DNA of 64,000 nt from Rhizobium sp. Q54. GTDB lineage: Bacteria; Pseudomonadota; Alphaproteobacteria; UBA2966; CAIVPW01. Shown here piece by piece: positions 15,302 through 33,751 of the stretch. Under the pieces are notes generated by a model that searched no databases, was not told the DNA's origin, and saw only the letters and a list, made by a program, of their open reading frames with translations. Made by a program: the position numbers and the translations under genes. Within the stretch, counting starts at the first letter, position 1; each line of letters starts with the position of its first letter. Location: assembly GCA_945889645.1 (NCBI GenBank), contig CAMDCA010000005.1:7728-71727 (forward strand), written 5' to 3'.

Positions 15302-16345
15302 ATGAAGGTCTCAAGCAGCGCCGCAGACGGGTTCGCGCGCCGGCCGGATCGTTCCTGTGTGCTGGTGTACGGGCCGGACCATGGCCTGGTGCGCGAGCGG
15401 GTGACGGCGCTGGCCCGGGCCGTGCTGGGGAAGGACTTCGGTGATCCGTTCCGCTCGGCCGACTTGCAGGGCACGGCCGTGGCGGCCGACTGCGCGCTTC
15501 TGGTCGACGAGGCAGCCGCGCTGGCGCTGACCGGCGGCCGTCGGGTCGTGCGGGTGAGCAATGCCACCGACGGTTCGGCGGAAGCGTTTGCGACGGTCTT
15601 AAAGGTGCGGGCCGGACGCCCCGCCGGTGAGGAGTCGTTGGTCATCGCTGAGGCCGGTGAGCTGGGGCCCCGGTCGGCACTGCGCCGATTGTTCGAGGAA
15701 TCGGCCGATGCCGCCTCGGTCGCTTGCTACGCCGTCGCCGATGAGGACTTGGTCGGCTTTGCTGAGGCAGCGTTGCGCAAAGCCGGCCATTCGATTGAGC
15801 CGGGGGCGCTGGACTTGTTCGGCAGCGCATCGATTAACGATCGGTCGGTTTTACGCTCCGAACTGGAGAAGGTGAGCTTGTTCGTTGGCCCCGGGGCGGT
15901 TGTGCGCGCCGAAGCGGTTGCCGCAAGTCTGGGCGATTCCCTGGAGAGCGACCTCGACGACGTCGCGCTGGCGGTCGCCACAGGAGATCTGGAACGGCTG
16001 GACGCTGCGATGGCGAAGGCGTTCTCCGCCGGCCAGGGCGGGATCACCGTATTACGAGCGGTCGGTCGGGAGTTAATCAAGCTGTACCCCGCGGTGGCCG
16101 CAGTCGGCGCCGGGGCGAGCGTGGAGGGTGCCGTGGGGCAAATCCGCCCGCTCGTGTTTTTCAAGCATAAGCCGCTGTATCTAAAGGCGACTCGCTCGTG
16201 GCGCACGGACGATGTCGCACGGGCGATCGAGATGATCGCCGAGGCGGAGTTGGTGTGCAAATCGGGCCTTGCGCCAGACGAGCCAATCGTGTGGCGCGCG
16301 TTGTCGCGCGTCGCCCACGCTGCCCGTCGATCGATTCCCGCCTAA
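15302..16345 (+). CDS. holA: DNA polymerase III delta subunit
   Basis: Start MKVSSS 4 nt after lptE. Delta-subunit N-terminal pattern (VLVYGPDHGLVRE). Conserved synteny. Confidence 0.75.
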   Translation: MKVSSSAADGFARRPDRSCVLVYGPDHGLVRERVTALARAVLGKDFGDPFRSADLQGTAVAADCALLVDEAAALALTGGRRVVRVSNATDGSAEAFATVLKVRAGRPAGEESLVIAEAGELGPRSALRRLFEESADAASVACYAVADEDLVGFAEAALRKAGHSIEPGALDLFGSASINDRSVLRSELEKVSLFVGPGAVVRAEAVAASLGDSLESDLDDVALAVATGDLERLDAAMAKAFSAGQGGITVLRAVGRELIKLYPAVAAVGAGASVEGAVGQIRPLVFFKHKPLYLKATRSWRTDDVARAIEMIAEAELVCKSGLAPDEPIVWRALSRVAHAARRSIPA

Positions 16346-17325
16346 AACCGATCGTTCGCTATCGCCGCGAGGGCGGCGGAGACATCTGTGTCGGACCACT
16401 CAGTCGCTTCGTCCGCGGGCCGCATGTCGCTCTCGCCGATCAGCACGCGGGCGAGCCGCTTACAGATTTCATCCAGTTGTTCGAGTGTCTTGTAGCTGAC
16501 GCGCACCTCGCCGCCTTCGTCGCCCTTATGGTGGATTGCGACCGGGAGACCCAGCGCCCGGGCGATATCGTGCTCCAGCGCGAGGGTATCGTTGTCCTTC
16601 TTTGCCGGAGCTTTACGAACAGATGTTCCGCCGGCTTCCGCAACAGCTTGCGCGAGCTTTTCGGTCTGACGAACGTTCAGTCCCTGACTGACCACGCGTT
16701 TGGCGAGGTCGATCGGATCTGACGCGGTCAACAGAGCGCGGGCATGTCCCGCCGACAGCTTGCCCTCGTCAACCATCGCCTTCACGTCATCTGGCAACCC
16801 CAGCAGCCGCAACATATTTGCCAGGTGGCTGCGGCTCTTGCCAAGCGCCTTGGCCAGATGTTCTTGAGTATGCCCGAACTCGTCCATCAGCCGTCGATAG
16901 CCTTCGGCCTCCTCCAGCGCCGTCAGGTTCTGTCGTTGCAGGTTCTCGACCAGCGCCACTTCCAGGGCGTCTGAATCGGAGAGTTCCTTGATGACAACCG
17001 GAACCTGGTGGAGCTGGGCCTGCTGCGCGGCCCGCCACCGGCGTTCGCCCGCGACGATCTCGTACGCTTCGTCGGCGCCCTCGCCGATCCGCCGAACTAG
17101 GATCGGCTGTAGAACGCCGCGTTCCCGGACCGAGGAGACAAGCTCGGCGATTTCGTCGGCGTCGAAACGACGCCGCGGCTGATACTTGCCCGGACGCAAC
17201 CGATCGATCGGAACCTCGCGTTGCGAGCGAACCTTATCGAGGGACGCGTAATCCTTTGCGTCGTCCCCAAGCAGGGACGATAAGCCACGACCCAAACCGT
17301 GACGCTTGCCGCTCTCTTCCGTCAT
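16342..17325 (-). CDS. parB: Chromosome partitioning protein ParB
   Basis: GLGRGLSSL box; ParB/Spo0J HTH and N-terminal domains. Its stop overlaps the holA stop (CTAA on opposite strands). Confidence 0.9.
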   Translation of the reverse strand: MTEESGKRHGLGRGLSSLLGDDAKDYASLDKVRSQREVPIDRLRPGKYQPRRRFDADEIAELVSSVRERGVLQPILVRRIGEGADEAYEIVAGERRWRAAQQAQLHQVPVVIKELSDSDALEVALVENLQRQNLTALEEAEGYRRLMDEFGHTQEHLAKALGKSRSHLANMLRLLGLPDDVKAMVDEGKLSAGHARALLTASDPIDLAKRVVSQGLNVRQTEKLAQAVAEAGGTSVRKAPAKKDNDTLALEHDIARALGLPVAIHHKGDEGGEVRVSYKTLEQLDEICKRLARVLIGESDMRPADEATEWSDTDVSAALAAIANDRF

Positions 17326-17388
17326 GACGCCCTCCTGCATTTGGTTGCCCAAGCCAAACGACGCAGAGCGTCGCTGACTTACCAACTA

Positions 17389-18228
17389 CTAGGCGGCCTG
17401 TAACGACCGTTCGCGCTTGAGGATCTCTCGCGCAAGGTCAATGTAGGCTTGACTACCGGAACACGTATGGTCGTACAGAAGGGCCGGCTTCCCGAAAGAC
17501 GGCGCCTCCGAAATACGAACGTTCCGCGGAATCACCGTGCTATAGACTTTGTCGCCCAAGTGTCCTCGGACGTCGTCCGCAACCTGGCCCGACAGATTGT
17601 TTCGCTTGTCGAACATCGTCAGCACAATCCCTTGAATCTCCAGTTTCGGATTCAAAGAGTTCTTGACACGATCAATCGTACGTAACAGGTGGCTCAGCCC
17701 CTCCAGCGCATAGAACTCGCACTGCAACGGAACGAGGAGCGCATCCGCCGCCACCATCCCATTTAGGGTCAACAGCCCAAGCGAAGGAGGGCAGTCGATC
17801 AAAATGTGATCGTACTGGTTGACGACCGGCGCGAGCGCCTCGCGCAGGCGAAAGGCCCGGCGGTCCATCGCCACTAGGTCGAGCTCCGCGCCAGACAGAT
17901 CGACGGTGGCTGGGACCACCCGCAGTCCCGGGATTTCCGTCTCGACGGTTGCCTGCTCGACGGTAACGGAGCCAAGGATCACTTGGTAGGTGCTGGCATC
18001 TCTCTGGCCGGCCCGGATGCCGAGACCGGTACTGGCGTTGCCCTGTGGGTCTAGGTCCACGAGCAAGACCTTCTGGCCCACGGCCACCAAGGCGGTCGCG
18101 ACGTTGATGGCGGTGGTCGTCTTTCCGACTCCGCCCTTCTGATTGGCAACACAAACGACCCGGGCAGGCCGCGCCGGCTCGAGGTTCTCAGGGTCCGGAC
18201 GTATCGGTTGCTGTTCCACGTGAAACAC
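17389..18228 (-). CDS. parA: Chromosome partitioning ATPase ParA/Soj
   Basis: Deviant Walker A KGGVGKTT. The annotated GTG start lies inside a parS palindrome, so the true start may be further downstream. Confidence 0.9.
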   Translation of the reverse strand: MFHVEQQPIRPDPENLEPARPARVVCVANQKGGVGKTTTAINVATALVAVGQKVLLVDLDPQGNASTGLGIRAGQRDASTYQVILGSVTVEQATVETEIPGLRVVPATVDLSGAELDLVAMDRRAFRLREALAPVVNQYDHILIDCPPSLGLLTLNGMVAADALLVPLQCEFYALEGLSHLLRTIDRVKNSLNPKLEIQGIVLTMFDKRNNLSGQVADDVRGHLGDKVYSTVIPRNVRISEAPSFGKPALLYDHTCSGSQAYIDLAREILKRERSLQAA

Positions 18229-18853
18229 CTTGGATCCGCAGGATCGCGGACGCGGGGTCCGTCCTGCTCGGCAGCACTTCGGAGGTCATTCTCCGCTCCT
18301 TGCCCAACGCGGTCAATCCCATCTGCGCGGATTGGCCGACGGGAAGCAGGTAGGTCGTCTCCGAATCCACCAAGTGCCCGGTCTGCCGCAGCACCTCGTC
18401 CGGCCGAGTCCAAGCTCGAGCGGTGAGGACATCGACAGACCCCCCGAGCGTTTCACGTGAAACATCCTGCACCCGTTTCGGATGAACCGTCACGCCGCCT
18501 AGACCAAGCACCCGAGCTGCCTCGTTCAAGAACGCGCCCTTTCGGACGTCGGATTCGATGAGGTGAACCCGAGGCGCACCCATGGCCGCGAGGATCAGAC
18601 CTGGAAACCCGGCACCGGAACCGACATCCACCCAAACCTTCGCGCCGATGGGTGCGAGCGGAAATAGCTGGGCGCTATCCAGGAAGTGGCGGCGCCAAAG
18701 ATTCCGAAGGGTGTTTGGACCAACAAGATTGATCGCGGCCTGCCACTTCCGCAGCAGCGCTTCGTAAGCCCTCAGACGCTCGACGACATCGGGACCAGCG
18801 CCCGTCGCCCCCGCAAATTCCACAGGAGTAAGGGGCCGAAGTTCGCCGCCCAT
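18188..18853 (-). CDS. rsmG: 16S rRNA (guanine527-N7)-methyltransferase
   Basis: SAM-binding motif VDVGSGAGFPG; GidB family; conserved position between mnmG and parA. Confidence 0.85.
   Translation of the reverse strand: MGGELRPLTPVEFAGATGAGPDVVERLRAYEALLRKWQAAINLVGPNTLRNLWRRHFLDSAQLFPLAPIGAKVWVDVGSGAGFPGLILAAMGAPRVHLIESDVRKGAFLNEAARVLGLGGVTVHPKRVQDVSRETLGGSVDVLTARAWTRPDEVLRQTGHLVDSETTYLLPVGQSAQMGLTALGKERRMTSEVLPSRTDPASAILRIQGVSRGTATDTSGP
18212..18227. promoter_or_regulatory. parS: parS site 1 (TGTTCCACGTGAAACA, 15/16 match to consensus)
   Basis: Matches TGTTTCACGTGAAACA with one mismatch. Overlaps the annotated parA start and the rsmG 3' end. Confidence 0.6.
18449..18464. promoter_or_regulatory. 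parS: parS site 2 (cGTTTCACGTGAAACA, 15/16 match to consensus)
   Basis: Palindromic near-consensus parS inside the rsmG coding region, about 235 bp from site 1. Confidence 0.6.
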
Positions 18854-20778
18854 CAGGCCGCCGTGCGCCCGCGCACGTATCCCAACAGACGCGCAAGGCC
18901 CGCCGGAGTCATCCCAGGAATGCGCGACGCCGCGCCGAGGCTCACCGGCCGGACCGCCGATAGCTTCGCCCGAACCTCGTTCGACAGGCCGGGGATCGCC
19001 TCGTACGAAAGGTCGAGCGGCAGCCGAAGGTTCTCGTCGCGCCCAAACGAGGCGATATCGCCCTCCTGGCGATCCAAGTACGACGCGTATCGGCCCTCAA
19101 TTCCGATCTGCTCCCAAACGGCCGCGGACAGCGCCCCCAACTCAGGCCAGACCGCCCGCAGCTGATCCGGACTCGCGAGACCTGTACCGAGGATCGCGAA
19201 CCCACTCCGCCGCTGGCCATCGTGGTTAACCTGGATCCCATGGGCAGCGGCCTGGTTCGGGGTCAGGGTACGCTCGACCAGCATCTGCCGGCCGGAGTCC
19301 ATCCGCGCCTGCTTCCTGCGGTGGTGCGCCAGCCGCTCTGAGCTGACGAGCCCCAACTCCGCACCGCGCTCTGTCAGCCGCTGATCGGCGTTATCCGCTC
19401 GGAGCGTCAGGCGGTATTCCGCCCGCGACGTGAACATGCGGTACGGCTCTGAGGTACCCCGCGTCACCAGGTCGTCGATCAGCACGCCGATGTAGGCTTC
19501 GGCCCGACCCACCTCGAATGCCGGCAACCCAATGGACTGCCGCCCAGCGTTCGCTCCGGCAACGATCCCTTGCGCGGCCGCCTCCTCGTACCCGGTGGTG
19601 CCGTTGATCTGCCCGGCCAGGAAAAACCCGGCAACGCGGCGCGTCTCTAGGGTCGGAGTCAGCTCGCGCGGATCGACATAGTCGTATTCGATGGCGTAGC
19701 CGGGCCGAATGACCCGGGCATGATCGAGCCCCGGGATCGAGTGAACGATCTCGTCCTGCACCTCCGCGGGCAGCGACGTCGAAATCCCGTTTGGATAGAC
19801 GGTGTCGTCGTCCAGCCCCTCGGGCTCCAGGAAGATCGTGTGGCTGGTCCGGTCGGCGAACCGAACCACCTTGTCCTCGATCGACGGGCAGTATCGCGGG
19901 CCCACACTCTCGATCTGGCCCGAATACATCGGCGACTGATGCAGATTGGCACGAATGATCGCGTGCGTGCGCTCGGTCGTCGCCGTCTGATGACAATGCA
20001 CTTGCCGCGTCGCAATCCGATCGGCCGTGAATGAAAACGGCTCCGGCGGCTCGTCGCCGGGCTGCGCCTGCAGTGCCGCGTAATCGATCGTCCGGCCGTC
20101 AAGTCTCGGCGGAGTCCCCGTCTTCAGGCGCCCAAGCGCGAATCCCAAACGACCGAGCGTACTGGATAGCCCGAGCGACGGCGCCTCCCCCACCCGACCG
20201 GCCGGCGTGGTCTGCGTGCCCAGATGGATCAGGCCGCGCAAGAACGTGCCCGTCGTCAGCACGACCGCACGCGCGGCGACCACTCCGCCGCCCTTTAGAA
20301 CGACGCCAGAGACGGTTGGCCGGCCGGCCCGAATAGCGACCGAAAGGTCGTCTACCTCGCCCTCGGCGATCGACAATCTGGGTGTTGTGGCAAGCGTCTC
20401 CTGCATCCACAACCGGTAGAGCCTCCGGTCTGCCTGGGCTCGCGGACCACGAACGGCCGGACCTTTGCTGCGGTTCAAAACGCGGAAATGAATCCCGGCG
20501 GCGTCCGCAGCCCGCGCCATGACTCCGTCCAGCGCGTCAATCTCCCGAACGAGATGACCTTTTCCCACTCCCCCGATCGCCGGGTTGCACGACATCGCAC
20601 CAATCGTGTCGAACCGATGCGTGACGAGGAGCGTTCGCGCACCAACCCGCGCCGAAGCAGCGGCGGCCTCACACCCTGCGTGGCCGCCGCCGATCACGAT
20701 AACGTCGAACGAACGGTCGACGATATCAGCGAGAGACGCCGTTCTATTTGCCAACGCAGAAGTCCCGGAATACGACAT
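18853..20778 (-). CDS. mnmG: tRNA uridine 5-carboxymethylaminomethyl modification enzyme
   Basis: FAD motif [16 protein letters not shown]; GidA signature throughout about 640 aa. Confidence 0.95.
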
Positions 20779-22066
20779 CGAGAAGGTCCTCAACGTCCAC
20801 TCGTCCTGTAATTCGCCCCAACGCGCGGGCGCCGAGGCGTAGGTCTTCGGCGCGCAATGTCACCTCCTCGGACCCCCGCAGGAACCGACGCAGCGATGCG
20901 ACGCACTCGGACAACGCCTGGCGATGTCGAACGCGCGTCAGTCCGGGTTCCTCGGCGAGACCCGCACGAACGTGCGCGGTCGCCGACAATCCCTGGACGA
21001 ACGACCGGATTCCCTCTCCAGTCCTTGCCGACACCGGCCAAACCCGGTCCGGCCCTACGCCTTCGACGCTGACAGGACGAACGTCCACCTTATTCACGAC
21101 GCGCACCGCCTCCGGACCCGCCCACGCCAGCGTTCGAGCGTCCACTGCGGGCCAAGCAACGGCGTCAAACACGCACACCACGATGTCGGCCTGGCGCGCC
21201 CGGGCATCGGCTCGGCGCACGCCTTCGGCTTCGATCTCGTCGTGAGAGTCGCGCAAGCCCGCCGTGTCGGCCAGCGTCACCGGTACGCCGTCAAGGTCGA
21301 GGCGCACCTCGACAATATCGCGGGTCGTCCCGGCCCGGGCCGACACGATCGCCGCCTCGCGCCCCGCCAAGGCATTCAACAGGCTCGACTTCCCGACATT
21401 CGGCGCCCCCACGATGGCGATCTGCAGCCCCGCGCGCAGACGCTCGCCCCGTCCGGACTCGGTCAGAGTCTCTTCCATTTCGGGTACCAGCCGATGGATA
21501 TGGACCGCGGCGGCCGCCAGGGTCTCGGCCGGCACCTCATCCTCGGCGAAGTCGATCGCCGCCTCGACATGGGCCAGCGCCCGCAGCACCTCGGTCCGCC
21601 ACCGTTCCAGCCGTTCCGCCAGCGCTCCTTCGAGCTGCCGCATGGCCTGCCGGCGCTGGCCCTCTGTTTCCGACTGCACCAGGTCGGCGAGCGCCTCCAC
21701 CTGGGTCAGGTCAAGCTTGCCGTTGTGGAATGCGCGCCGTGTGAAAGCGCCAGGTTCGGCCAGTTCCAGGCCGGGCACCGCGGCAAGCTCGTCCAGCACC
21801 GCGCGCACCACCGCCCGGCCGCCATGGACCTGGAATTCCGCCACGTCTTCTCCCGTCACGCTGGCCGGAGCGGGAAACCACAACAGCAGCGAGCGGTCGA
21901 GAAGGGTACCGTCGGCGCGCCGCAAGGCGGCAACGGTGGCCATGCGCGGCTCCGGCATCCGCCCGGCCAGGGCGCGCACGGCCCGGCCGGCCTCGGGGCC
22001 CGATACCCGCAGAACCGCGACACCGGCGGGACCCGGCGCGCTCGATAGCGCAAAGATCGTGGACAC
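20744..22066 (-). CDS. mnmE: tRNA modification GTPase
   Basis: G1 motif [10 protein letters not shown]; C-terminal CxGK motif (DFCVGK). Confidence 0.9.
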
Positions 22067-27368: not shown

Positions 27369-28622
27369 TTAGGCGTTCATCGAGTCAAAGAACTCGGCGT
27401 TGGTCTTGGTGCCCTTGAGCTTGGACAGCAGGAACTCCATGGAGTCGGTGACGCCCATCGGCATCAGGATGCGGCGCAGCACCCACATCTTCGACAGCGT
27501 GCCCTTGTCAACCAGGAGCTCTTCCTTGCGCGTGCCGGAGCGCGTGATGTCGATCGCCGGCCACGTGCGCTTGTCGGACAGCTTGCGGTCGAGAATGATT
27601 TCCGAGTTACCGGTGCCCTTGAACTCTTCGAAGATCACTTCGTCCATGCGGCTGCCGGTATCGATCAGCGCGGTGGCGATGATGGTCAGCGAGCCGCCGT
27701 TCTCGATGTTGCGCGCGGCGCCGAAGAAGCGCTTCGGCCGCTGCAATGCGTTGGCGTCAACACCGCCGGTCAGCACCTTGCCGGACGACGGCACCACGGT
27801 GTTGTAGGCGCGCGCCAAGCGGGTGATCGAGTCGAGCAGGATCACCACGTCACGGCCGTATTCGACCAGGCGCTTGGCCTTGGCGATCACCATCTCGGCG
27901 ACCTGCACATGGCGCGTCGCCGGTTCGTCGAACGTTGAGGACACGACCTCGCCGTTCACCGAGCGCTTCATGTCCGTGACTTCTTCGGGTCGCTCGTCGA
28001 TGAGCAACACGATCAGGTAGACGTCGGGGTGGTTGTGGCTGATCGAGTGCGCGATGGTCTGCAGCATCATCGTCTTGCCGGTGCGCGGCGGCGCGACAAT
28101 CAGTCCGCGCTGGCCCATGCCGAGCGGGGTGATGAGGTCGAGAACGCGCGCGCTCGGATCGCCACCCGCCTTGTCGATCTCCAGCTTGAAGCGCTTCTCG
28201 GGGTAGAGCGGCGTCAGGTTGTCGAAGTTGACCTTGTGCCGGACCGTCTCGGTGTCCTCGAAGTTGATGCTCTTGACCCGCAGCAGCGCGAAGTAGCGTT
28301 CGCCTTCCTTCGGCGCGCGAATCTCACCCTCGACCGTGTCGCCGGTGCGCAGCGCGAAGCGCCGCACCTGGCTTGGGGACACATAGATGTCGTCCGGGCC
28401 CGCCAGGTAGTTCGATTCCGGCGAGCGCAAGAACCCGAAGCCGTCCTGCAAGATCTCCAGCACACCGACGCCGGTGATCTCGACGTTGTCTTCGGCCAGC
28501 TGCTTAAGGATCGCGAACATCATGTCCTGCGTCCGCAGCGAGTTGGCGTTTTCGACCTTGTGCGCCTCGGCAAACGCGAGGAGCTCGGTCGGCGACTTGC
28601 GCTTCAATTCTTGGAGGTTCAT
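27369..28622 (-). CDS. rho: Transcription termination factor Rho
   Basis: Start [15 protein letters not shown]; Walker A/B and Q/R loops. A 275-nt leader lies upstream. Confidence 0.95.
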
Positions 28623-28897
28623 GGGCGTTCTGGGGTTCTGAGAAGCCTGGCGGCCGGGGGGTAGCGGGGGATTTGGCGGGTTCGGGCGAGGAGGCCTCGC
28701 CGCGACGGATTTCGAAACGGATGTGCCGTGGAGGCACCAGCGCAACGAAACTTGTGGGGAAGTGGGGGCGCCAAAGGTGCGCCCGAGGTGTTGACGGCTT
28801 CACCGTAATGCGAAGCCGCTGTCGAAGTCAAACCCGCGGAAGGCGCACAACGGCAGGATTGGTGCGTTGTCACAAGCGTGGCGCAGTCACACGTTCG

Positions 28898-29354: not shown

Positions 29355-30383
29355 TCATGCTGCCGCTCCTCCGCGTGCACAGACCGCCGACGGGCAGCGG
29401 TGGCCCGCATGGCGGGGGCAGGCGCCCAGGGTGCCGGCCAAGGCGGCCCGAACCAGGCCCGCCAGCCCGTTGATGAATTGGGGGTTGGTCGCCACCGTCG
29501 GGGCCCGCACGTAGGCGGGTACGCCGGCATGGGCCGCCGCCTCGCGCAGTTCGATGTCGAGCTCCACTAGGGTCTCCGAGTGCTCCGACACAAACGAAAT
29601 CGGTGCCACCACGACAGGCACCCGATCGGCACCGGCCTTGGCGATCTCCGCGTCGATCGACGGGCCGATCCACGCCAGGCGGCCGACCCGGCTCTGGTAG
29701 CACAGGCGCCAAGACCCAGGCGCCAGGCCAAGCTCGGCGGCAATCGCCGCCGCAGTTGCGGCGGCATGGCCAGGGTAGGGATCGCCGGAATCCGCAATGC
29801 GCAGCGGCAGGCCGTGGGCTGAGAACAGCACGCGCGGGCTACCGTACCGGTTCGCTTCGTCCAGCGCCGGCCGGATGCAGTCGGCATAGGCGCGCAGGAA
29901 CCACGGCTGGGTGCCGTAGCAGCCGACGGTGGTGACGCTGCTGCCCGTCAGCTGCTGCCATTCGGCCACGGAGGACGCGGTCGTGGTCGTCGAGTACTGC
30001 GGATACAGCGGCACCAGGACCGTACGGTCGGGTGCGAAGGCCCGCACCGCGGCTACAGTTTCGGCCGCGCGCGGGTGCCAATAGCGCATGGCGGCGAACG
30101 TGCGTACGTCGCCGGCATCGGACAGCGCCGTCGCCAGCGCGCGGGCCTGGGCGTCTGTCTGTTCGCGAATGGGGGATCGTCCGCCGATCTGGGCGTAGAT
30201 CGCACGCGCGATGGGGGCTCGCCGGCGCGCGATCCATTCGGCCAGCAAAACCCGCACCGGCGTCGGCACCCGCAGAATCGCGGGGTCGCGGAACAGGTTG
30301 CGCAGGAACGGCAGCACCGCCTCGGGGCGATCGGGACCGCCGAGGTTGAACAGCACCACGGCGATGCGGCTATGGGCGCTCAT
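29355..30383 (-). CDS. hemH: Ferrochelatase with a Cys-rich C-terminal extension
   Basis: Start MSAHSRIAVVLFNLGGPD overlaps the hemE stop (ATGA). The C-terminal tail ...GACPRHAGHRCPSAVCARGG carries 3 Cys. Confidence 0.85.
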   Translation of the reverse strand: MSAHSRIAVVLFNLGGPDRPEAVLPFLRNLFRDPAILRVPTPVRVLLAEWIARRRAPIARAIYAQIGGRSPIREQTDAQARALATALSDAGDVRTFAAMRYWHPRAAETVAAVRAFAPDRTVLVPLYPQYSTTTTASSVAEWQQLTGSSVTTVGCYGTQPWFLRAYADCIRPALDEANRYGSPRVLFSAHGLPLRIADSGDPYPGHAAATAAAIAAELGLAPGSWRLCYQSRVGRLAWIGPSIDAEIAKAGADRVPVVVAPISFVSEHSETLVELDIELREAAAHAGVPAYVRAPTVATNPQFINGLAGLVRAALAGTLGACPRHAGHRCPSAVCARGGAAA

Positions 30384-31414
30384 CGGGCTCGGGTCCGCAC
30401 GCGCTGCACCAGTTGGGCGACATGATCCGGCGGGGTGTCCTGCCGAATGCCATGGCCAAGGTTGAACACATGGGGTGCGCCCCGCATGGTTCCCAGGATG
30501 CGATCGACTTCTTCGTCCAAGGGCGGGCCGCCTTCGGCCAGCAGAATTGGATCCAGGTTGCCCTGCAGCGCCGTCTGCGCCGGTACTTGGCGGCGCACCC
30601 AGGCCAGCGGCGTGCCCTGGTCGATGCCGATCGCGCTGACGCCCGTCTCGGTGGCGAACCGGCGCAGCTGTGCGCCGCCGCCGCGCGGAAAGCCGATGAT
30701 CGGCAAGCCAGGCACCGCGGCACGAACCCGTCGCACGATTTCGGCCACCGGTTCGATGCACAAACGGTGGAACAACCCCTCGGGTGCTGCTCCGGCCCAG
30801 CTATCGAATAGCTGAACGACTTCGGCCCCGGCGCGTGCCTGCGCGATCAAGTGACGCGCGGTCACGTCTACGAGCAGGCCCATCAGTTCGCCAAAGGTCT
30901 GCGGGTCACGCCACGCCCAGCGAATCAGGTTGGCATGATCCGTCCCGCCCTTGCCTTCGACCATATAGGCCGCAACGGTCCACGGTGCCCCGGCAAATCC
31001 GATCAAGGTGCAGGTCTTGGGCAACGCTGCGGCTAGCCCTCGCACCGCGTCGTAGACCGGCGCCAAACGATCTTCCAAGCCCTCTGGACGCAGCGCTGCA
31101 ATGTCTTCGCGCGAGCGGACCGTACTCAGCACAGGGCCTTCGCCCTCGCGATACTCGAGCTGCATGCCCAAGGCATGCGGAATGACCAGGATGTCGGAAA
31201 ACAGGATCGCTGCATCGAAGCCAAACCGGCGGATCGGTTGCAACGACACTTCTACTGCAAGGTCCGGCGCATAGCACAGGTCTAGGAAACTACCTGCCTG
31301 CGTGCGTACCGCTTTGTACTCGGCCAGATAGCGGCCTGCCTGACGCATCAACCAGATCGGTGGCGTTGCCAGCGCCTCGCCTGCCAGTACGCCTAGCAGG
31401 GCCTTGCGTGTCAT
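30380..31414 (-). CDS. hemE: Uroporphyrinogen decarboxylase
   Basis: Start MTRKALLGVLAGE; PIWLMRQAGRYL signature. Confidence 0.9.
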   Translation of the reverse strand: MTRKALLGVLAGEALATPPIWLMRQAGRYLAEYKAVRTQAGSFLDLCYAPDLAVEVSLQPIRRFGFDAAILFSDILVIPHALGMQLEYREGEGPVLSTVRSREDIAALRPEGLEDRLAPVYDAVRGLAAALPKTCTLIGFAGAPWTVAAYMVEGKGGTDHANLIRWAWRDPQTFGELMGLLVDVTARHLIAQARAGAEVVQLFDSWAGAAPEGLFHRLCIEPVAEIVRRVRAAVPGLPIIGFPRGGGAQLRRFATETGVSAIGIDQGTPLAWVRRQVPAQTALQGNLDPILLAEGGPPLDEEVDRILGTMRGAPHVFNLGHGIRQDTPPDHVAQLVQRVRTRAR

Positions 31415-31737
31415 CGGGCGAGTCTCGGAATGTCCGGCACCCTCTAAGATCATAGATGGGTAAGGAATGATGGTAGTGGTGATTGGAACATAGATATGCG
31501 GGAGTTCTTGTGCTCAGGAAGAGTGTGCACAGACGAGGTCGCGCAGGGACCGGTCCGCCGCCGTCGTTTTGTCACCTTTTGGCAAACTTGTCCCCGTTTC
31601 GCCTTGCACGTGGATGAAACGATCCAGCTGTCCGCAAGCATGGGGATGAGTTGGTGGCAAAGTGCGTCCATGACCACGCATGAGGGCGGAATGGTACTTA
31701 TCCCGTGCTGGCTTGGGACAACTTTGGCCGGGACGCG
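31415..31737. other. oriC: Candidate chromosomal replication origin (oriC) in the hemE/maf intergenic region
   Basis: 323-bp non-coding gap, locally about 50% AT in a 67% GC genome. Flanked by hemE on one side and maf-aroE-coaE-dnaQ-secB on the other, which is the conserved alphaproteobacterial Cori context. Degenerate DnaA-box-like 9-mers are present (GTGGATGAA, TTATCCCGT, TGACCACGC). parAB and the parS sites lie about 13 kb away. Genes on either side are predominantly oriented away from this point. Confidence 0.5.
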
Positions 31738-32322
31738 ATGAACACGTTGATTCTGGCCAGTGGCAGCCCGACGCGAGCGAAGATGCTGACCGCGGCCGGC
31801 GTGACATTCAGCACGATTGTGCCGCAGGTCGATGAGCTGATGTTGCGCGCGCAGGCCAAGGATGGAGCGGCAGCCGCGCGTGCGATCGCCGAACAGAAGG
31901 CGCTGGCCGTTTCGAAAACGCATTTAGATGCCTGGGTCATTGGCGCCGACCAAGTTCTCGAAGTCGGCACAACGCTGCTTGGTAAGCCGGGTACATGGGC
32001 CGAGGCACGATCCCAGCTGACGCTGCTGCGCGGCCGCACGCATCGCCTGGTGACTGCTGTGGCGGTGGCGCATGCGGGCGCGATCACATGGCATCACATG
32101 GAATCCCCCAGCCTGACGGCCCGAACGTTCACCGATGAGGCGCTAGACGACTACGTTGGTCGCGCCGGCGACGCAGTTCTTGGCAGTCCCGGCGCCTATC
32201 ACTTCGAAGGCCTTGGGGCCTCCCTGTTCGACGAGGTCCAAGGAGACTATTTCTCGATCCTCGGACTTCCGCTGCTTCCGTTGCTGGCATATCTCCGCAC
32301 TCAGGCCGTGATCTCCGCATGA
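31738..32322 (+). CDS. maf: Maf-like nucleoside triphosphate pyrophosphatase
   Basis: LILASGSPTR N-terminal motif. Confidence 0.85.
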   Translation: MNTLILASGSPTRAKMLTAAGVTFSTIVPQVDELMLRAQAKDGAAAARAIAEQKALAVSKTHLDAWVIGADQVLEVGTTLLGKPGTWAEARSQLTLLRGRTHRLVTAVAVAHAGAITWHHMESPSLTARTFTDEALDDYVGRAGDAVLGSPGAYHFEGLGASLFDEVQGDYFSILGLPLLPLLAYLRTQAVISA

Positions 32323-33164: not shown

Positions 33165-33751
33165 AGGTGCTCGGCATCACCGGGTCGGTGGGCATGGGTA
33201 AAACGACCGCCGCCAAAGCTTTCGCCCGCGCCGGCTATCCGGTGTTCGACGCCGATGCGGCCGTCCACGATCTGCTGGCCAACGACAAACAGACCATCGC
33301 CGCGGTGCGCCGCACATTTCCCGGCGCGATCGAGCGTGGCGCCATCGATCGCAAGGCGCTCGGTGCGCTTGTCTTCGCCAGCCCGGCGGCACTGGCTCGC
33401 CTCGAGAAAGTCCTGCACGCACGCGTGCGGGCCCGCCAGCGCCAGTTCGTCCGCGACGCTCGGCGCGGCGGTGCAACTCTTGCGGTGGTCGACGTGCCGT
33501 TGTTGTTCGAGACCGGCGGTGACAAGGAAGTCGACGCGGTGCTTGTCGTCAGCGCACCCGCGGCCGTGCAGCGCGCGCGTGTGCTGGCGCGGCGCGGCAT
33601 GACTCCGGCGCGCTTCAAGGCGATGCGTGCGCGGCAGTGGAGCGATCGCGACAAGCGGCGGCACGCCACCTATGTTGTGGATACCGGCGCGGGACGCGCC
33701 ATGATGGTGCGGCAGATCCGCGCCATCCTCGCTATTCTCGATCCGCAGTAG
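33161..33751 (+). CDS. coaE: Dephospho-CoA kinase
   Basis: GTG start overlapping the aroE stop. P-loop GITGSVGMGKTT. Confidence 0.85.
   Translation: MKVLGITGSVGMGKTTAAKAFARAGYPVFDADAAVHDLLANDKQTIAAVRRTFPGAIERGAIDRKALGALVFASPAALARLEKVLHARVRARQRQFVRDARRGGATLAVVDVPLLFETGGDKEVDAVLVVSAPAAVQRARVLARRGMTPARFKAMRARQWSDRDKRRHATYVVDTGAGRAMMVRQIRAILAILDPQ

Follow-up and report, generated by a model that had tools for sequence, protein, structure and literature searches.

Probable chromosomal parS sites embedded in rsmG, one of them overlapping the parA start codon, in an uncultured alphaproteobacterial lineage

The window analysed here, a stretch of 64,000 nucleotides from a high-GC alphaproteobacterial genome, carries on its minus strand the gene order mnmE-mnmG-rsmG-parA-parB, as follows.

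20744..22066, minus strand: mnmE (trmE), NF003661, 566 bits, first gene of a tightly packed block
18853..20793, minus strand: mnmG (gidA), TIGR00136, 819.9 bits, with a stop codon overlapping the start of rsmG
18188..18853, minus strand: rsmG (gidB), 221 aa, TIGR00138, 105.9 bits against a cut-off of 99.5
17389..18219, minus strand: parA, Soj/ParA of the chromosomal type, Walker A KGGVGKTT, 276 aa from the preferred GTG
16342..17325, minus strand: parB, TIGR00180, 199 bits, 327 aa if the start is M21 of a 347-aa open reading frame reaching 17385

The 3′ end of rsmG overlaps parA by 32-41 nt, in a different frame. Two sites related to parS, the sequence to which ParB binds, are found in rsmG.

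18212..18227, no strand assigned: parS1, TGTTCCACGTGAAACA on the plus strand and TGTTTCACGTGGAACA on the minus (gene) strand
18449..18464, no strand assigned: parS2, CGTTTCACGTGAAACA on the plus strand and TGTTTCACGTGAAACG on the minus (gene) strand

Each of them agrees at 15 of 16 positions with the perfect palindrome TGTTTCACGTGAAACA, and when set against the degenerate consensus TGTTNCACGTGAAACA parS1 matches at all 16 positions and parS2 at 15. The sequence-only reading that had first singled out these sites had their coordinates and sequences exactly right, and its count of 15 matches out of 16 is borne out for both; it was equally justified in placing parS1 within the 3′ end of rsmG, where the site turns out to lie 22-39 nt before the stop codon, and in recognizing the peptide MFHVEQ as the translated site. 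These are the only matches with at most three mismatches on either strand of the 64-kb window, which holds no further or degenerate parS at that threshold, and dinucleotide-preserving shuffles yield 0.02-0.10 such matches per window by chance. The half-site 7-mers GTTTCAC (n = 7) and GTTCCAC (n = 8) occur in the 64 kb at about the expected number, with no enrichment. Each site departs from the palindrome once; the variants concerned (position 1 C or position 16 G; C/G at 5/12) recur in numerous other genomes, at parS sites whose position is conserved.

About 13 kb from the parS sites lie rho, hemH and hemE with the hemE-maf spacer, which together form the usual neighbourhood of the replication origin in Alphaproteobacteria. 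The hemE-maf spacer showed no cluster of DnaA boxes, and as to origin signals the 64-kb window has a single DnaA-box-like 9-mer (at 33676) but lacks any CtrA box and any spacer strongly rich in AT; the GC skew in the window tracks gene orientation. The parS consensus was first defined in B. subtilis, and in Caulobacter crescentus the parS cluster adjoins parAB. For the canonical consensus and the clustering of its sites near the origin we follow the summaries in PMC2346475 and PMC7022226. The present sites share with canonical chromosomal parS the 16-bp palindrome, the position beside parAB and the proximity of a likely origin neighbourhood; they differ in that the 64 kb hold two of them, both in one gene, and one together with the start codon of parA.

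Read in the frame of rsmG, parS1 is G-V-S-R-G-T, residues 209-214 of 221, and parS2 is D-V-S-R-E-T, from residue 130, in a variable loop that follows the conserved R-x-(E/Q) motif of RsmG. As both sites read VSR(E/G)T in this frame, and as VSRET is recurrent in RsmG of many Alphaproteobacteria, the matches might be regarded as by-products of a conserved protein motif and not as ParB sites. This is scarcely credible. Thousands of codings would be possible for the peptide, yet it is spelled with the codons that make parS, which are rare in this 67% GC genome (GTT is 16% of Val, TCA 4.4% of Ser, CGT 11% of Arg, GGT 13% and GGA 10% of Gly, ACA 6.5% of Thr). Given the peptide, such a codon choice has a joint probability of about 1e-4 for parS2 and about 6e-7 for parS1. 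The peptide is met, furthermore, at no fewer than five non-homologous places of RsmG across lineages, and some of these occurrences use the other frame, reading FHVK(R), so that the recurring unit is a DNA word, not a position in the protein. Relatives devoid of the C-terminal site keep G-V-S, but they write it with the common codons GTC/GTG and TCC. Finally, parS1 is identical at 16 of 16 positions between the window and three loci with 87% ParA identity (L097-L099), against 91 of 134 positions (68%; 49/72 and 42/62) in its flanks; at this pooled flank identity, 0.68^16 is about 0.002. Rare-codon spelling, an intact site between diverged flanks and the common codons of the site-less sister lineages together indicate that the parS sequence is maintained by selection on DNA beyond coding constraints. 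Since parS can be read as V-S-R-E-T or F-H-V-K, its presence inside rsmG would follow from the tolerance of RsmG segments to the peptides read through it.

The adjacent ParB fits this picture. It aligns to the Caulobacter protein (6t1f, E=4.8e-67), which was crystallised on parS and shows the same DNA-contact residues: all eight are kept (Q162, G170, K171, S172, R173, N178, G201 and R204 in Caulobacter numbering). At positions 179 and 184 the ParB of the window has M and G, with no Noc-type Lys, and the protein carries the GERRWRA CTP/arginine motif. As judged from this alignment, it has the parS-contact and specificity residues of a cognate protein. Its gene lies 0.9 kb downstream of parS, and ParB of relatives has 327 aa. 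ParA shows the deviant Walker A KGGVGKTT, matches Pfam ParA/CbiA/AAA_31 and has hundreds of chromosomal homologues, the closest in the genome collection being only 71% identical. With only about 27 residues before Walker A it is of the short chromosomal type; the N-terminal DNA-binding repressor domain of type Ia (for this distinction see PMC7022226) is absent from the ParA of the window. We therefore read parS1 and parS2 as the centromere-like parS of the chromosome, ParB loading sites embedded in the rsmG coding sequence, with a probability of about 0.85. Dimers of the adjacent ParB would bind them, close as CTP-dependent clamps and slide onto the neighbouring DNA, and the partition complex formed by loaded ParB would then be moved by ParA. 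Rather than a new kind of element, we see here an ordinary centromere whose location is slightly unusual.

How unusual this position is can be appreciated from a set of 80 alphaproteobacterial loci (77 for the region upstream of mnmG), close relatives having been found by a ParA protein search; a metagenome scan with RsmG gave only relatives of at most 51% identity, unhelpful for the rsmG/parA junction. A parS sits at the RsmG N-terminus in 61 of the 80 loci, and upstream of mnmG or at its 5′ end in 60 of the 77: parS in or beside rsmG is the norm in the alphaproteobacterial loci analysed. The window resembles the typical locus in its mnmG-rsmG-parA-parB order and in a parS read as V-S-R-E-T within rsmG, and differs from it in having neither an RsmG N-terminal nor an mnmG-upstream site, mid-gene and C-terminal ones being present instead. 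No residual parS similarity is left in the codons where a remnant of the N-terminal site was sought (GCT GGT CCC GAT GTC GTC GAG). In L100 (97% ParA identity) both sites stand at the same codons as in the window, and the RsmG column of parS2 also carries parS in L100, L101 and L102. Overlap of parS with the parA start is confined to the window and its nearest relatives: it is seen, among the 80 loci, only in the window and L100, and separately in L097-L099; L106 shows the right half-site of a junction parS at its contig edge. No locus of the genome collection has parS on a parA start candidate, and the sister lineages have none at the rsmG/parA junction. The clade keeps two parS in rsmG.

This distribution suggests a scenario of site turnover. 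The ancestral sequence at the end of rsmG and the start of parA, GGnGTnTCCCGTGG..., would have been about four substitutions away from parS; the sublineage of the window would have fixed those changes and lost the usual RsmG N-terminal site, still retaining two sites in rsmG. The DNA of the overlap reads GVSRGT for RsmG and also carries the ribosome-binding site and start codon of parA. The direction proposed, gain here as against decay in the sisters, draws on a handful of metagenomic relatives. The coincidence of parS1 with the start of parA is better explained as a by-product of such turnover under coding constraints than as a regulatory device.

Where, then, does parA begin? The stretch from the upstream in-frame stop to the Walker A box holds just two canonical start codons (of ATG, GTG and TTG), the GTGs at 18228-18226 and 18219-18217. 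Both overlap parS1, the second belonging to the central CACGTG of the palindrome, in frame and three codons (9 nt) downstream of the first, which the ORF caller had chosen. Of the earlier view that parS1 contains the called GTG, only part survives: two of the three bases of that codon are inside the site, whereas the central GTG is wholly inside. A start at the former gives 279 aa, at the latter 276 aa (M-EQQP...). A further feature is placed as follows.

18226..18231, minus strand: AAGGTG, resembling a Shine-Dalgarno sequence, placed 6 nt upstream of the central GTG and sharing its final two bases with parS1, of which they are the first two

The predicted duplex with the 16S 3′ tail amounts to -8.0 kcal/mol for the central GTG and -4.4 kcal/mol for the upstream one in the window, and to -11.0 and -4.9 kcal/mol, respectively, in L097; in L102 the stronger Shine-Dalgarno belongs to the upstream GTG. 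In L103 and L105, where no upstream GTG exists, translation starts at the homologue of the central GTG, which is also the called start in L102; the gene call of P0005, an 87% relative, begins at MEQQPI despite the presence of an upstream GTG. P0006 was set aside as support, its contig beginning one base before that GTG, an edge artefact. Because it serves as start in relatives without parS at this place, and because of its better Shine-Dalgarno pairing, the central GTG of the palindrome appears likelier than the upstream one, a choice that draws on gene-caller output, homology and predicted pairing.

A true start further downstream, which would make the annotated one wrong and abolish the overlap, had also been envisaged, and the NCBI annotation of the 97% relative (P0004/L100) does place the start at a CTG 10 codons further on. 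In the window CCG stands in its place, and from 18217 to the Walker A box there is neither ATG, GTG, TTG nor CTG; the sole near-cognate codon there is ATA, which is ATC in L097, and the lysine of the deviant Walker A must be translated. With only two canonical starts, both touching parS1, initiation downstream of it is ruled out, and the idea retains a negligible likelihood. A shift of the parA start by 9 nt, to the central GTG, may be in order, but would leave it inside parS1.

Such a location invites regulatory interpretations, and the sequence-only reading had proposed that ParB autoregulates parA at its translation start. As stated, this mixes levels: the ligand of ParB is double-stranded DNA and not mRNA, so that whatever effect the protein had would be exerted on transcription. 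A transcriptional version can be phrased as follows: parS1, with or without parS2, would also be an operator, at which ParB slows or blocks RNA polymerase on its way into parA, creating negative feedback on ParA and ParB. Either rsmG read-through or an internal promoter (about 18316-18288), for which there is one candidate, would supply the polymerase.

18288..18316, minus strand: candidate internal promoter TTGACC-17-GAGAAT, the only promoter-like match in 6.1 kb

Its start lies 133 nt downstream of parS2, and 60 nt separate its end from parS1 further downstream. If this promoter is real, parS1 would lie some 55-70 nt downstream of the predicted transcription start; parS1 covers the ribosome-binding site and start of parA, and the sublineage keeps it without a change. 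There are precedents: control of gidB and parA was proposed for M. bovis BCG, by a parS over a -10 box and a second one within parA (PMC2346475), and in P. aeruginosa ParB represses promoters beside the intergenic parS3 and parS4 (PMC7022226). These points have to be weighed against the sigma-70-like consensus scan, which predicts no -35/-10 element overlapping parS1 or parS2 and whose sole match is not above chance (shuffles give 0.6 matches, so it is not significant alone). Chromosomal parAB1 of V. cholerae is not autorepressed, the same being stated for B. subtilis, and the spreading of ParB1 silences only 2 of 20 covered genes in V. cholerae (PMC4010829); loss of Spo0J leaves the expression of parS-adjacent genes unchanged (PMC7022226), and intragenic parS has little effect on expression (PMC4010829, PMC7022226). 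Sister lineages, moreover, manage without a parS at the junction, and a centromere role fully accounts for the conservation of parS1. All in all, autoregulation of parAB by ParB seems unlikely, and an operator function of parS1 improbable.

A more elaborate variant would make parS1 a dual-use element, combining a ParB roadblock on DNA with an RNA hairpin that holds the Shine-Dalgarno and GUG and couples the translation of parA to rsmG, tuning the dosage of ParA and ParB. The palindrome may indeed form a hairpin in RNA, of about -4 to -7 kcal/mol. The 101-nt RNA region around it shows no stability beyond that of shuffles (z = -0.16), and there is no evidence of a dedicated RNA element. Were this variant true, ParA/ParB dosage would be tuned to the assembly of the partition complex in this lineage; we hold it to be quite doubtful, regulatory coupling of parS1 being not indicated.

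In the literature on parS with rsmG, or on a chromosomal parA start, the only close precedent found is the mycobacterial gidB/parA work (PMC2346475). The jag-gidB-parA-parB loci of M. tuberculosis, M. bovis BCG as well as M. smegmatis resemble the window in having two parS only and a gidB/parA overlap; their sites are at the gidB 5′ end/promoter and within the annotated parA coding region, promoter activity exists in the 3′ end of gidB, and an effect of ParB on parA expression was already suggested by the authors (PMC2346475). One of the mycobacterial parS overlaps a -10 box that lies upstream of gidB. The window, from another phylum, has instead both sites in the 3′ half of rsmG, the downstream one on the start codon. 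With parS3/parS4 of P. aeruginosa, and with silencing by plasmid ParB/KorB, parS1 shares a ParB site very near the beginning of a gene (PMC7022226); parS3 and parS4 are intergenic and promoter-adjacent, whereas parS1 is intragenic, in a block that is probably co-transcribed, and no predicted promoter overlaps it.

The finding opens no new question about ParABS. It locates the centromere in an alphaproteobacterial lineage that is uncultured and high in GC, and the main value of the finding is one of annotation: the likely start of ParA is corrected to M-EQQP..., 276 aa, and the "MFHVEQ" and CTG-start annotations in relatives turn out to be unreliable. Beyond this, we may take it as a small, clean example of the turnover of parS inside a coding gene, in which the number of sites and the host gene stay constant while the positions move wherever the protein tolerates VSRET or FHVK.

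Two near-consensus parS sites had been proposed at 18205-18470 by a sequence-only reading of the window, and both 16-mers are found at exactly the coordinates given, each with a single mismatch, in the following setting:

31739 onward, plus strand: maf-like ORF
31454-31738: lower-GC spacer of 285 bp (about 55% GC) between hemE and the maf-like ORF
30380-31453, minus strand: hemE, upstream of the mnmE-parB block
29355-30761, minus strand: hemH, upstream of the block
27369-28745, minus strand: rho, upstream of the block
20744-22066, minus strand: mnmE
18853-20793, minus strand: mnmG
18188-18853, minus strand: rsmG (gidB)
18449-18464: parS2, plus strand reading CGTTTCACGTGAAACA, one difference from the perfect palindrome TGTTTCACGTGAAACA
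18212-18227: parS1, plus strand reading TGTTCCACGTGAAACA, one difference from the same palindrome
17389-18228 as listed, minus strand: parA
16342-17385 as listed, minus strand: parB
leuS, lptE and a likely holA: convergent on the mnmE-parB block from the opposite side

The hemE-adjacent region is a classic origin neighbourhood in Alphaproteobacteria, many of which have oriC there. The hemE-maf spacer of the window, some 13 kb away from parS1 and parS2, lies at this position; neither a DnaA-box cluster nor a CtrA box was found in it. The tight packing and overlap of mnmE, mnmG, rsmG and parA suggest that they are co-transcribed, a situation documented for gidAB-parAB in V. cholerae and P. aeruginosa (PMC4010829, PMC13438810) and for gidB-parA-parB in mycobacteria (PMC2346475). 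As listed, parB opens with a TTG and encodes 347 aa, 20 codons more than in close relatives, whose ParB has 327-329 aa; given this shorter length, parB probably begins at M21, the ATG at 17325 (MTEESGKRHGLGRGLSSLL), a start that would leave a parA-parB spacer of 63 nt.

The identification of the 16-mers as parS is right, and it draws on several lines of evidence, the first of which is match and rarity. parS1 matches the degenerate consensus TGTTNCACGTGAAACA completely, and the two sites are the sole matches in the 64-kb window at three mismatches or fewer on both strands; dinucleotide-preserving shuffles give a chance expectation of 0.02 matches for the degenerate pattern (at most two mismatches) and 0.10 for the perfect palindrome (at most three). 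The adjacent ParB, aligned to Caulobacter ParB (PDB 6t1f, E=4.8e-67) and read against published contact and specificity residues (bioRxiv 10.1101/724823), retains 6/6 conserved DNA contacts (Q162, G170, K171, S172, N178, R204), both parS-specificity residues, R173 and G201, and the GERRWRA motif; where Noc has lysines, at positions 179 and 184, it has M and G. parS1 and parS2 would then be ParB loading sites nucleating a partition complex beside parAB, and this ordinary loading and partition role is the best-supported explanation.

It might be argued that these words reflect a conserved protein motif of RsmG rather than ParB sites. A parS can be translated in two frames only, as V-S-R-E-T or F-H-V-K, the third carrying TGA, and both sites are read in one shared rsmG frame: on the gene strand parS2 is GAT GTT TCA CGT GAA ACG (D-V-S-R-E-T, from residue 130) and parS1 is GGT GTT TCA CGT GGA ACA (G-V-S-R-G-T, from residue 209 of 221). 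Against the protein-motif reading, besides the residues of the neighbouring ParB, stands the use of codons that are rare among 4,881 codons of confident genes in this 67% GC window: GTT makes up 16% of Val codons, TCA 4.4% of Ser, CGT 11% of Arg, GGT and GGA 13% and 10% of Gly, and ACA 6.5% of Thr, so that the probability of the spelling given the peptide is about 1e-4 for parS2 and 6e-7 for parS1. Conservation tells the same way. L100, a locus with 97% ParA identity, has both sites at codons identical in position. In L097-L099, contigs of three different ENA metagenome assemblies with the same ParA (P0005, 87% identical to that of the window), parS1 is 16/16 identical despite flanks with just 49/72 and 42/62 identities; simple arithmetic gives a probability of about 0.002 for this at 68% per-base identity. 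L106 begins mid-palindrome and keeps the right half. L101-L105 (79-86% ParA identity), devoid of parS at this junction, retain the G-V-S residues, spelled with the common codons GTC/GTG/GTA and TCC.

Some features of these assemblies deserve mention. The contigs of L097, L098, L099 and L106 (86-87% ParA relatives) all break off at parS1 or no more than about 150 nt upstream. The first bases of L098 are the remains of a Nextera adapter (AGATGTGTATAAGAGACAG), and the locus looks prone to fragile or artefactual assembly. GCA_009694055.1 (SHVX01) holds two distinct mnmG-rsmG-parA-parB loci, L100 (97%) and L103 (79% ParA identity to the window), and since these differ within one MAG assembly, the bin appears to mix two related organisms.

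We gathered 80 alphaproteobacterial rsmG-parA loci via ParA, together with six closer metagenomic relatives, and counted placements over 80 loci with enough upstream sequence, the window and L100-L105 included. A parS lies at the RsmG N-terminus, usually as x-V-S-R-E-T-L, in 61/80, upstream of mnmG or in its 5' end in 60/77, mid-gene in rsmG in 13/80, and within the last ~50 rsmG codons in 7/80. The mid-gene sites fall at four positions that are not homologous to one another: FLR-EVSRET, which differs by a single residue from FLREVARET, a sequence common in RsmG; V-F-H-V-K-R, read in the alternative frame; R-V-Q-D-VSRET, the site of the window; and a separate site encoding DSRET in L038. Of the loci with a site towards the 3' end, five are sphingomonads (L040, L063, L067, L074, L079), whose rsmG 3' region carries a GC-rich TGTTCCACGTGGAACA or close variant that reads (M/V)FHVEQS in the RsmG frame. 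It precedes the parA ATG by 54-66 nt in four of these loci and by 108 nt in L067, a second, independent case of parS near the parA start. A parS placed on that start itself is seen, among the 80 loci, in the window and L100 only, and beyond them in L097-L099, with the right half-site at the L106 contig edge.

Within the window's family-level clade each member has two rsmG parS (the second match of L104, weaker, falls just upstream of the gene) and lacks a site upstream of mnmG. In L101-L105 one site is N-terminal and, L104 excepted, another is mid-gene, while the window and L100 have mid-gene and C-terminal sites, with no remnant of parS seen in their N-terminal rsmG codons. The sister junction sequences TGTCTCCTGTGGACCA, TGTCTCCCGTGGATGA and CGTGTCCCGTGAACCA are four mismatches from parS. 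On the simplest reading, a pre-adapted sequence at the junction turned into a parS and the N-terminal site disappeared; the opposite direction, decay of the junction site in sister lineages, is an admissible alternative.

The claim that parS1 overlaps the parA start codon holds whichever start is used. From the upstream in-frame stop to the Walker A lysine there are just two ATG, GTG or TTG codons, GTG1 (18228-18226, the gene caller's start) and GTG2 (18219-18217, the central CACGTG of the palindrome), and no CTG is present; a start downstream of parS1, also envisaged, is thus excluded, the sole near-cognate codon being an ATA that is not conserved (ATC in L097). NCBI places the start of P0004, the ParA of L100, at a CTG that lies 10 codons inside the ORF (L100 3501); for the window this was rejected, and as the codon there is CCG, the annotation is probably an artefact. 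Comparing ParA N-termini across relatives, as had been proposed, points to GTG2: L103 and L105, with GCG and GGG at the GTG1 position, start at the homologous codon, which gene calling also picks in L102 and which L101 has in frame. We favour GTG2 because of these homologous starts, the P0005 gene call (MEQQPI, despite GTG1 in L097-L099), an AAGGTG at 18231-18226, 6 nt upstream, and a stronger predicted duplex with the 3' tail of 16S rRNA (-8.0 versus -4.4 kcal/mol for GTG1; -11.0 versus -4.9 in L097); L102, with a stronger SD at GTG1, is a counterexample. The 'VEQQ' start of P0006, a contig-edge artefact, was set aside as support. parS1 sits in a different-frame overlap, VSRG for rsmG and F-H-V-E for parA, which explains the 'MFHVEQ' N-terminus, correctly recognized as translated parS.

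The further proposal of ParB autoregulation at the parA translation start is off target: because ParB binds DNA, the coincidence has no direct mechanistic meaning. ParB on parS could conceivably act as a transcriptional roadblock, as already proposed for mycobacterial gidB and parA (PMC2346475). In V. cholerae and B. subtilis, however, chromosomal parAB are reported to lack autoregulation (PMC4010829), few genes are silenced by ParB spreading (PMC4010829, PMC7022226), and repression has been demonstrated chiefly at intergenic, promoter-adjacent sites (PMC7022226). A promoter-like TTGACC-17-GAGAAT lies between the two sites (18316-18288), a single match not above chance; in mycobacteria the gidB 3' end is known to have promoter activity (PMC2346475). 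In the mRNA, the parS1 palindrome is predicted to form a 6-bp hairpin (-4 to -7 kcal/mol) covering the start and part of the SD, and the 101 nt around it have no extra structure beyond shuffles (z = -0.16). Regulatory coupling at parS1 is, all considered, improbable.

The placement on the parA start is a small oddity of position that coding constraints and site turnover account for. Judged from their sequence, the two 16-mers are the canonical chromosomal centromere of a new, uncultured lineage, and rsmG, by the loci compared here, repeatedly serves as host to parS across the Alphaproteobacteria.
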